From a virus (Duplodnaviria; Caudoviricetes), in IMG/VR virus record IMGVR_UViG_3300049171_000102, positions 1 through 27,914 of that record: DNA of 27,914 bases; one strand, given 5' to 3'. Positions 387-1,915 of this stretch are shown one piece after another; the first letter of the stretch is position 1, and every line of letters starts with the position of its first letter. The translations under genes and the position numbers were made by a program. The notes below the pieces were generated by a model. That model was given only the letters and a program-made list of their open reading frames with translations, did no database searches and was not told the origin of the DNA.

Positions 387-429
387 AGGTTGACGCATGC
401 GTCTACCTCCCCTATGGTTAACGCATGCG
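387..429 (+). promoter_or_regulatory. Sigma70/HrdB-type promoter overlapped by two operator-like sites
   Basis: TTGACG (390-395), 17 bp, TATGGT (413-418). Near-perfect 22-bp palindrome AGGTtGACGCATGCGTCtACCT (387-408). GGTT(G/A)ACGCATGCG occurs at 388-401 and 416-429. Confidence 0.8.
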
Positions 430-458
430 GAAACGCTCCGCAGCGAAAGGGGAGGGCC

Positions 459-947
459 ATGCCGCGCATCAACATCTACGACCACGCCACCGACGAGTTC
501 GACCAGAGCGAGCCCCAGCTCATCGGCTGGTTCAACCCCGACTCCGCCACCTCCTACGAGGAAGCCACGGAGTGGGACGGCAACAACCACGTCTCCGTCA
601 ACCCCGTCGGCCAGTACGGGCACCAGATGCTCTACCGCACCAAGGGCGGGCGCTGGATCCTCAACACGTGGTCCCAGTACCAAGGTGTCGCGGATCGGTA
701 CGAGTTCATCGACGACGACACCGCCAAGGACTGGTTGATCCGCAACAACGAGGACGACGCCGCCGAGCAGTGGTTCGGCGCGCTGGAGGAGGAGTCCGGG
801 CCTAACCTCGGAGGCCGCCCCGCCGTCGGCACGAAGGTGGAGACGCGCCTGCCGGACGACCTCCTCGCCCGCCTCGACGAGCGCGCCGAGACGGAGGGTG
901 TGGCCCGCGCGGAGATGATCCGCCGCCTCGTCACCGCCGCCCTCTGA
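459..947 (+). CDS. Protein with unknown acidic/aromatic N-terminal domain and C-terminal ribbon-helix-helix (CopG/Arc-like) DNA-binding domain, 162 aa
   Basis: SD GGAGG at 451-455, ATG at 459. C-terminus GRPAVGTKVETRLPDDLLARLDERAETEGVARAEMIRRLV fits the RHH pattern. Confidence 0.85.
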   Translation: MPRINIYDHATDEFDQSEPQLIGWFNPDSATSYEEATEWDGNNHVSVNPVGQYGHQMLYRTKGGRWILNTWSQYQGVADRYEFIDDDTAKDWLIRNNEDDAAEQWFGALEEESGPNLGGRPAVGTKVETRLPDDLLARLDERAETEGVARAEMIRRLVTAAL

Positions 948-958
948 CGACAGCGAAG

Positions 959-994
959 CGCCCCCACTGCCGGCCGAAGCCAGCAGTGGGGGCG
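959..994 (+). terminator. GC-rich stem-loop, probable terminator or attenuator
   Basis: CGCCCCCACTGC-C-GGC / CGAA loop / GCC-A-GCAGTGGGGGCG starting 12 nt after the stop codon. No U-tract. Confidence 0.6.
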
Positions 995-1175
995 AAGCGC
1001 AACCCTCGAAGGGGCGATGAGAGCAACTGCGCTGCTGACCGCGGCCATCAAACGGCAAGTTGCTACCCCGCGTGCGGGGCAATGCGCCCACCGTAGCAGA
1101 GCACCCGCAGTGGCCACTGCCCCCGTTCGTCCATCCGTCTTATGTAGAGACCGCCACGCGGAAAGGACCACTGAC

Positions 1176-1538
1176 GTGATCATCGCCAACCTGACCCCTC
1201 ACCCCGTCACCATCTTCGACGGTGACCGTGCCATCGTCACCCAACCCCCGGACGGCACCATGGCCCGCTGCGTCGAAACCCGTGCCGATCTCGGCACCGT
1301 CGTCCTCTACGGCAACAAGGTCCCCCTGCGTGAGGTCGCGTTCGGGGACGTGGAAGGGCTGCCGGAACCGGCGGACGGCGTCATCGTCGTGGTGTCCCGC
1401 GCTGCTGCCGAGGCCGCCGCCATGCGGTACCCGGAGCGGGACGACATCGTGTACCCCGACGGCCAAGTCCGGGACGGGCAGGGCCGCATCATCGGGTGCA
1501 CCGGCCTCGCCCGCGTGCCCCGGATGTCCACGCGCTGA
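1176..1538 (+). CDS. Conserved small NLTPH-motif protein (120 aa); candidate Crn4-like cyclic oligoadenylate ring nuclease / anti-CRISPR
   Basis: SD AAAGGA then GTG at 1176. Motifs NLTPH, PPDG.MAR, GLPEP..GVIVVVSR, R.DI..P, VRD..GRIIGC. The ORF is solid; the functional link is from recollection and unverified. Confidence 0.6.
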   Translation: MIIANLTPHPVTIFDGDRAIVTQPPDGTMARCVETRADLGTVVLYGNKVPLREVAFGDVEGLPEPADGVIVVVSRAAAEAAAMRYPERDDIVYPDGQVRDGQGRIIGCTGLARVPRMSTR

Positions 1539-1550
1539 CCCCACGCACGC

Positions 1551-1588
1551 CGCAGCGCCCCGCCTCCCGAAGGAGACGGGGCGCTGTG
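1551..1588. terminator. Probable bidirectional terminator between convergent units
   Basis: CGCAGCGCCCCG-C-CTCC / CGAA / GGAG-A-CGGGGCGCTGTG, between the + strand stop at 1538 and the - strand stop at 1664. Confidence 0.75.
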
Positions 1589-1663
1589 CGTGAAGCAGAC
1601 CGGTACGGAACCGGTGCGTTGGTCGCGCTACCGCCAGCATGGCACGCCGCACCGACAATCCAC

Positions 1664-1915
1664 TCAACGGCCGGTGTCTGGCTCCAGCATCAGCGTCACG
1701 TCCGGCCCGCGCTCAGCGTCGAAGTCAGGGCCCATCAGCCACGTGACGCTGCTGACGGCGTACCCGCGGTCCGTCTCCCACTCCGTGCCGTCCTCGTCGG
1801 TGGTGGTGGCGTACCACAGGATCTCGTCACCCACCCGTGGCAGACGCGACGGCTCCATCTCGATGATGGCGTCCTTCACGGACTGGTCGCAGAAATCCAG
1901 CTGTACGCGCAGCAT
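1664..1915 (-). CDS. Small acidic hypothetical protein (83 aa)
   Basis: SD GAGAGGAG upstream of the ATG, GC3-biased codons, LPRVGD motif suggestive of a small beta-barrel. Confidence 0.75.
   Translation of the reverse strand: MLRVQLDFCDQSVKDAIIEMEPSRLPRVGDEILWYATTTDEDGTEWETDRGYAVSSVTWLMGPDFDAERGPDVTLMLEPDTGR

Follow-up and report, generated by a model that had tools for sequence, protein, structure and literature searches.

Crn4 proteins (Unk01; PDB 9R7B, 9SMA, 9QS9) are ring nucleases in which H15 and R112 are essential, and Crn4b cuts both cA3 and cA4 (PMC12830947). A total of 11 phage and 10 plasmid copies have been reported, with a proposed anti-CRISPR role. Phage Crn4b is thus already published, and the crn4 gene described here is, taken alone, an ordinary further member. 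The parts of that study consulted refer to neither a flanking repeat unit nor an RHH gene, and no phage copy was assayed in it. Crn4 can also trip type II Panoptes (PMC13577387), a cost that could favour tight control of the gene.

Two kinds of repeat-derived RNA are closest to a second element of our locus. Cracrs (bioRxiv 10.1101/2024.10.29.618823) resemble it in being phage-borne and in combining a degenerate repeat, a spacer-like part and a terminator; the candidates include type I-B and Actinomycetota, and synergy with co-encoded Acr proteins has been described. Cracrs match a cas or toxin promoter, whereas no such match was found for our spacer in six type I-B regions. The terms "ring nuclease", "type III" and "Streptomyces" do not appear in the accessible portion of the preprint. 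Racrs, or solitary repeat units (PMC10651486), are likewise intergenic repeat mimics adjoining acr-type genes. RacrIC1 and AcrIC5 are carried on one RNA, and the single sense repeats that we found before crn4 in loci L038, L263 and L282 would be arranged in the same way. The unit described here differs in having a second partial repeat 64 nt away, in keeping the handle and in being antisense to crn4, and is therefore not solitary.

Precedents also exist for the regulator. Aca14 is an RHH protein that represses a promoter in an anti-defence region through palindromes at the -35 and -10 elements, and controls a csx20 ring-nuclease operon (bioRxiv 10.64898/2026.07.27.740549). AcrIE10 is an effector-RHH fusion (PMC13530269), as is gene 1 of our locus. 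In gene 1 the RHH is C-terminal to a 110-aa beta domain that lacks a Pfam or clear structural match. Literature searches (Crn4/ring nuclease, Racr/type I-B, mini-array/Streptomyces, ring nuclease/Racr) returned no report of a cassette joining crn4 to a CRISPR repeat, although supplementary tables might list elements of the L038 type.

Organization of the locus

The window is an entire virus record of 27,914 bases, from a soil phage. A minus-strand late operon encodes terminase, portal, ClpP, capsid, amidase and holin, with a collagen-like gene ending at 2050, and two plus-strand genes face it (Table 1). Both gene 1 and the lysis genes have relatives in Streptomyces records, and the host is therefore likely to be a streptomycete. 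Positions 16-2600 are identical in a contig of the probable source run, which is not an independent sample.

A sequence-only reading of this DNA had described a self-contained two-gene unit with its own consensus promoter, operator palindromes and closing terminator. Every one of these parts was recovered, namely both open reading frames, a TTGACG-17-TATGGT promoter, two CGCATGCG palindromes and a closing hairpin. The simplicity of the unit was not: the 228-nt gap between the genes holds a second strong hairpin and, on the opposite strand, a CRISPR repeat-spacer-repeat unit absent from that reading. Neither hairpin was listed by the terminator scan because both lack a U tract. Flanked by the lysis terminator (2048-2034) on one side and the closing hairpin on the other is an acidic 83-aa orphan gene (1664-1915, minus strand; weak phrog_14677 match, E = 0.005), probably a further inserted module.

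Table 1. Positions of the elements of the locus in the window.
Feature	Position	Strand	Remarks
Sigma-70-type promoter of gene 1	390..418	+	-35 at 390, -10 ending at 418; layout kept upstream of homologues
Operator palindrome 1, CGCATGCG	394..401		Overlaps end of -35; co-varies with RHH strand
Operator palindrome 2, CGCATGCG	422..429		28 bp from palindrome 1, directly after -10; co-varies with RHH strand
Gene 1	459..947	+	162 aa
Hairpin, likely bidirectional terminator	959..994		G+C-rich, no U tract; z -5.4, 0/200 shuffles
Degenerate CRISPR repeat R1, downstream copy	995..1024	-	19-nt exact core; 21/30 ungapped to Streptomyces repeat
Spacer-like sequence	1025..1058	-	34 nt, between R1 and R2
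Degenerate CRISPR repeat R2, upstream copy	1059..1089	-	23/30 with one inserted base
Candidate extended -10 promoter for repeat RNA	1090..1098	-	Inferred by eye; not listed by promoter scan
crn4 leader and ribosome-binding site	1127..1167	+	Colinear with leader of closest viral crn4 locus, L038
Gene 2 (crn4)	1176..1538	+	120 aa
Closing hairpin, likely bidirectional terminator	1546..1592		Common to crn4 and the 83-aa gene; z -7.4, no U tract

Gene 2 encodes a probable Crn4b

The resemblance of gene 2 to Crn4, which had been proposed from its size and motifs, is borne out by comparison with the solved proteins, and the motifs listed for it are present. Using phmmer, residues 3-115 matched Crn4b (PDB 9R7B) with E = 4.6e-19, and gene 2 matched Crn4a (PDB 9SMA) with E = 1.2e-8. 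H9, R99, T7, S74 and R75 of gene 2 align with H15, R112, T13, S91 and R92 of Crn4a; the position of Crn4a E16 is occupied by Pro. The hairpin insertion of Crn4a (~10 aa) is missing, leaving gaps against 9SMA and none against 9R7B, and the protein thus shares the short hairpin arm of Crn4b as well as its size, NLTPH motif and catalytic His/Arg. Residues N5-H9 and R99 are invariant across 31 gene-2 homologues. We conclude with high confidence that gene 2 is a Crn4b homologue, and it is likely to be a cyclic oligoadenylate-degrading enzyme as predicted from these residues. An alternative start at ATG-1017 was rejected: a ribosome-binding site precedes 1176, homologues begin there and the extension would overlap the repeats.

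Homologue searches returned 30 proteins, matches in 21 of 50,697 phage records, and 140 IMG/VR stretches, 80 of which were kept. All five Streptomyces matches examined (L119-L123; ~1498-1854 in each) lie inside prophage lysis cassettes in the order endolysin-crn4-holin, and crn4 overlaps the endolysin stop in four of them. This placement implies late expression of the ring nuclease. The arrangement in L087 resembles these cassettes. Within the order to which G406 belongs, Crn4 was present in 67 of 301 genomes (30 loci fetched), and several of the crn4 genes in L256-L285 adjoin a conserved 307-aa gene and appear to be chromosomal. A divergent, NTTPH-bearing Crn4-like clade (L142:1125-1475, L147:259-612, L155:1705-2061) occurs in short operons ending with a gene-1 homologue; its match to the Crn4 profile is weak (E = 5e-5 to 3e-4) and its C-terminal half differs.

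A degenerate repeat-spacer-repeat unit lies between the genes

The gap between gene 1 and crn4 shares a 19-mer, in opposite orientation, with L038, the closest viral crn4 locus (59-60% identity). We took this 19-mer to resemble actinobacterial CRISPR repeats, and this was then tested by genome search. The 30-nt repeat of G269, of which 43 of 44 copies are identical, served as reference. Scored against it, 994/995-1024 and 1059-1089 rank highest in the window, at 23 and 22 compared to 20 for the next place; the core at 1003-1021 occurs once in the window. The period from R1 to R2 is 64 nt, against 64-69 nt in host arrays, and the 34-nt spacer compares with 33-39 nt in hosts. The last 11 nt of R2, comprising the handle and 3' stem arm, are exact, and an exact 11-mer at array spacing is expected by chance with a probability of ~7e-6. 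Rfam gave no CRISPR or other real match in the region. Overall, 995-1089 is almost certainly derived from CRISPR repeats, judging from these alignments and the spacing.

The two repeats have degenerated differently. We read the minus strand as sense, on the assumption that the repeats are co-directional with cas1-cas2. In R2 the hairpin is kept, with one U-A pair of the stem replaced by G-C through changes on both sides, whereas R1 keeps its 5' part but has a shortened stem and has lost the 3' handle. The hairpin and 8-nt handle associated with Cas6 processing are therefore complete in R2, where Cas6 would presumably cut to leave the 8-nt handle, as in type I-B systems generally. Between them, R1 and R2 retain the minimum that one crRNA-like product would need.

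We also scored 2,103,936 high-GC positions in loci that had been fetched by protein rather than by repeat, and four distinct matches reached 22/30. Three are the sense repeats at -74, -73 and -76 from the crn4 start in L038, L263 and L282, each a single copy with no partner within 100 bp, which is the single-repeat criterion used for Racrs; the fourth lies ~1 kb before the gene-1 homologue of L144. The repeat-bearing crn4 genes are ~38-60% identical to gene 2 (two of the three measured). Such repeats are not general, as 56 of the 58 high-GC crn4 upstream regions scored gave no more than 18 and contain none; L282 fell outside the motif filter of this scoring and was checked separately. The unit in the window is antisense and has two repeats, as opposed to the lone sense copy of its three relatives, and the two arrangements may differ in function. 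Derivation of the unit from the sense repeat of L038 by a simple inversion was considered and rejected by eye, as the offsets did not fit. The crn4 genes with sense repeats in L263 (1504-2265) and L282 (1504-2541) encode proteins (253 and 345 aa) with a long extension at the C terminus.

The repeat family in host genomes and the search for a spacer target

With at most one mismatch, the 1003-1021 core was found in 17 of 401 Streptomyces genomes, ten of them with 3-90 copies, compared to one match for the reversed control; where places were listed, the period is ~66-67 bp. In G287 and G128, the arrays adjoin a cas6-cas8-like-cas7(Cst2/DevR)-cas5-cas3-cas4-cas1b-cas2 operon. NCBIfam models assign this operon to type I-B: Cas7 (Cst2/DevR) passed the cut-off, Cas1 came nearest to the I-B model, and Cas5b and Cas6 were recognized. 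Cst2/DevR likewise passed it in 5 of 10 further genomes checked. Cas10 is present in 6 of the 401 Streptomyces genomes and in none of the 17 that are repeat-positive, which counts against the model proposed below. A possible explanation for the pairing of a type I-B repeat with a type III antidote comes from G729, an actinomycete in which same-family arrays at 250.3-250.6 and 262.4-262.8 kb flank a Cas10 and RAMP operon at 252.5-258 kb; such arrays were found in two of five Cas10 genomes tested.

The repeat core also occurs in three IMG/VR records. In the IMG/VR record of L245, a gene at 385-1722 resembles by eye the cas8-like genes of the type I-B operons. It is the sole cas gene within 5 kb, and one copy of the repeat (2501-2519) precedes a downstream gene. 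L247 carries a decayed multi-repeat array of the same family (2200-2700) adjoining a prophage lysis cassette. Single degenerate repeats lie upstream of cas6 in the Streptomyces type I-B loci L249 (17777, plus strand) and L287 (3081, minus strand), and are possibly host cas-regulating RNAs.

CRISPR mini-arrays have reportedly been the subject of earlier studies, and the unit could itself function as a mini-array with one spacer, using host Cascade against a rival phage or plasmid or silencing a host promoter as Cracrs do, with a target outside the collections searched. It has the features required of a functional guide, namely an intact handle, a spacer of host-like length and a downstream hairpin. 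In addition, the phage record is a fragment of 27.9 kb, and Streptomyces phages are thinly sampled. However, the best spacer matches are at chance level: E was 1 or worse in phages and 0.07 or worse in plasmids (25/29 on Streptomyces plasmids at E = 0.9), and no seed of at least 9 nt was present in the six type I-B cas regions. Nor did the window contain such a seed; the best of 142 host spacers matched at 16/34, and the exact pattern occurred 0 times in IMG/VR. Just one of these host spacers matched any locus examined, too few to derive a PAM. We consider a targeting mini-array possible but somewhat unlikely.

Gene 1 is an RHH fusion that probably represses itself

Gene 1 had been read as a domain of ~110 aa and no known family joined to an RHH, and this description stands: PF01402 matched residues 130-161 (E = 1.3e-6), and the RHH gave structural matches with Z up to 6.0. 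The N-terminal domain (residues 1-112) is acidic and aromatic-rich, with 23 D/E versus 7 K/R, and is confidently predicted (pLDDT 87 and 85) to adopt a beta-rich fold that includes two helices. Pfam gave no family for the query and none recurring among 27 members; NCBIfam and PHROG matched the RHH alone, except for a weak phrog_23266 match (E = 0.045). Matches of the domain to PDB sequences were at chance level, Foldseek returned nothing at E<=0.001 in PDB and BFVD, and the ESM Atlas gave at best 0.79, to clusters of viral proteins without names. A CYTH-like sheet suggested by VIA-align (best Z 4.9) was not trusted.

The N-terminal domain had no match among INPHARED phages, and a profile search collected 731 family members. 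When the loci were clustered at 90% identity, 69 of the 91 clusters, one of which is the window, showed the RHH fusion. The commonest upstream partners are a DUF5710-like protein (eight clusters) and an HTH_17-like protein (six). Among 132 neighbours scanned with Pfam there was no known Acr or anti-defence family, apart from a below-cut-off DUF5710 match and one Panacea antitoxin, a point against the island proposed below. A type II toxin-antitoxin reading was rejected in view of the lack of a recurring toxin neighbour. The N-terminal domain is most likely a counter-defence effector, which is the weakest step of our explanation.

The promoter of gene 1 was the sole one detected in positions 1-2400, with 0.0 expected in shuffles, and the two copies of CGCATGCG within and beside it are the only ones in the entire 27.9 kb. 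The DNA-binding domain of gene 1 and the matching predicted operator in its own promoter are what an Aca would have. The RHH strand could be called, and sufficient leader was available, in 59 of 91 clusters. Among these, GCATGC was present in the leaders of all seven homologues with a KVE.R strand and in 2 of the 52 others, and both exceptions have similar strands; other RHH strands pair with other palindromes, e.g., GATATC or GGTACC. The association (Fisher p = 1e-7) is overstated because kin are not independent. This co-variation lends good support to autorepression, and the RHH of gene 1 very probably represses its own promoter. RHH control of anti-defence operons had already been described (Aca14/csx20, AcrIE10).

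The linkage of gene 1 and crn4 is loose

The sequence-only reading took gene 1 and crn4 as one acr-aca operon, in which a single 390-418 transcript would cover both genes, the RHH would act as the Aca and the 959-994 hairpin would merely attenuate. The promoter scan found no separate consensus promoter before crn4, and an operator pair precedes an upstream cargo gene in L015, L222 and L126, so the gene-1 family can act Aca-like at the end of a short operon. Furthermore, the gene-1 homologues of L026, L142, L147 and L155 have crn4 or a divergent Crn4-like gene upstream (directly so in the last three), and Aca14 offers a precedent in its repression of the csx20 operon. Against this, the hairpin directly follows gene 1, with similar hairpins after many homologues by eye; no GCATGC operator precedes crn4; and the cargo of the family is upstream rather than downstream. 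The order gene 1-then-crn4 was seen in one of 91 clusters, the window itself (63 had at least 1 kb downstream). The gene-1 domain was found in 0 of 80 viral crn4 loci, and among the 401 Streptomyces genomes crn4 is present in four and gene 1 in eight, with no overlap. The two-gene operon is thus doubtful, and control of crn4 by gene 1 is similarly improbable.

A weaker association did emerge from the neighbourhood survey, in which 31 clusters had 3 kb on both sides. In three of 91 clusters a true crn4 is no more than 3 kb from gene 1. These are the window itself, L026/L214, where it is 2.2 kb upstream, and L174, where it is divergent. L223 has a crn4 remnant 6 kb from gene 1. Gene 1 and crn4 share accessory regions more often than the rarity of crn4 (21/50,697) suggests, and the order in the window is not conserved.

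Proposed mode of action

We propose that the region behind the lysis genes is an inserted anti-CRISPR island of three stacked parts, namely a gene that likely represses itself, a repeat unit giving a crRNA-like decoy, and a Crn4b homologue, so that a cOA-degrading enzyme is combined with a crRNA-mimic RNA; we give this an even chance. The steps of expression, binding and activity are predicted from the anatomy, homology and conservation reported above. Gene 1 would likely be transcribed on entry and then shut off by RHH dimers on the two palindromes, its transcript likely ending at the 959-994 hairpin. From the candidate -10 at 1098-1090, transcription of a minus-strand repeat RNA would begin near 1083, where the 5' end of R2 is degenerate, and would stop, judging by eye, at the same hairpin. 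Host Cas6 would cut the R2 hairpin to give a product of 8-nt handle, 34-nt spacer and repeat hairpin, which may load into host type I-B, possibly also type III, complexes and compete with host crRNAs. A Crn4 dimer would use His9 and Arg99 to cut cA4 and cA3, which would dampen type III signalling and perhaps that of cA3 CBASS; its expression from its own leader or by read-through is more likely than tight gene-1 control.

Whether 995-1089 yields a functional anti-CRISPR RNA is evenly balanced in our view. The lack of a spacer target, the short R1 stem, an RNA promoter found by eye and the many repeat-free crn4 upstream regions all count against the decoy. It is improbable that the repeats are instead decaying remnants acquired with crn4 from a host CRISPR locus, with crn4 alone under selection. 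In favour of this reading, neither repeat is intact, other prophages (L247) and genomes contain decayed arrays, and there is a single known holder of the DNA of the window. Against it, the parts relevant to processing are kept (the R2 handle and its stem with changes on both sides; the R1 5' part and stem) and three unrelated crn4 genes keep a repeat at a matching offset.

The decoy reading, if true, would connect two counter-defence strategies, ring nucleases and repeat-mimic RNAs, that have until now been reported separately, and would provide testable RNA anti-CRISPR candidates for actinomycete type I-B, perhaps type III. Two wider proposals are put forward jointly and tentatively. Crn4 and a mimic of a repeat common to type I-B and III loci may form a recurrent cassette of actinomycete mobile elements, in which one insertion would jam crRNA loading and erase the cOA alarm, and host Cas6 cutting the crn4 leader would sense the presence of CRISPR. 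Gene 1 may in turn be the founder of a large counter-defence family whose members join a new fold to an Aca-like RHH of their own, which would offer a readable operator code and a guilt-by-association marker for anti-defence cargo. Lastly, the crn4 leader contains a perfect 14-bp palindrome (1107-1120), 7 nt of which are common to both arms of the 959-994 hairpin; it is possibly a second operator or an antiterminator.
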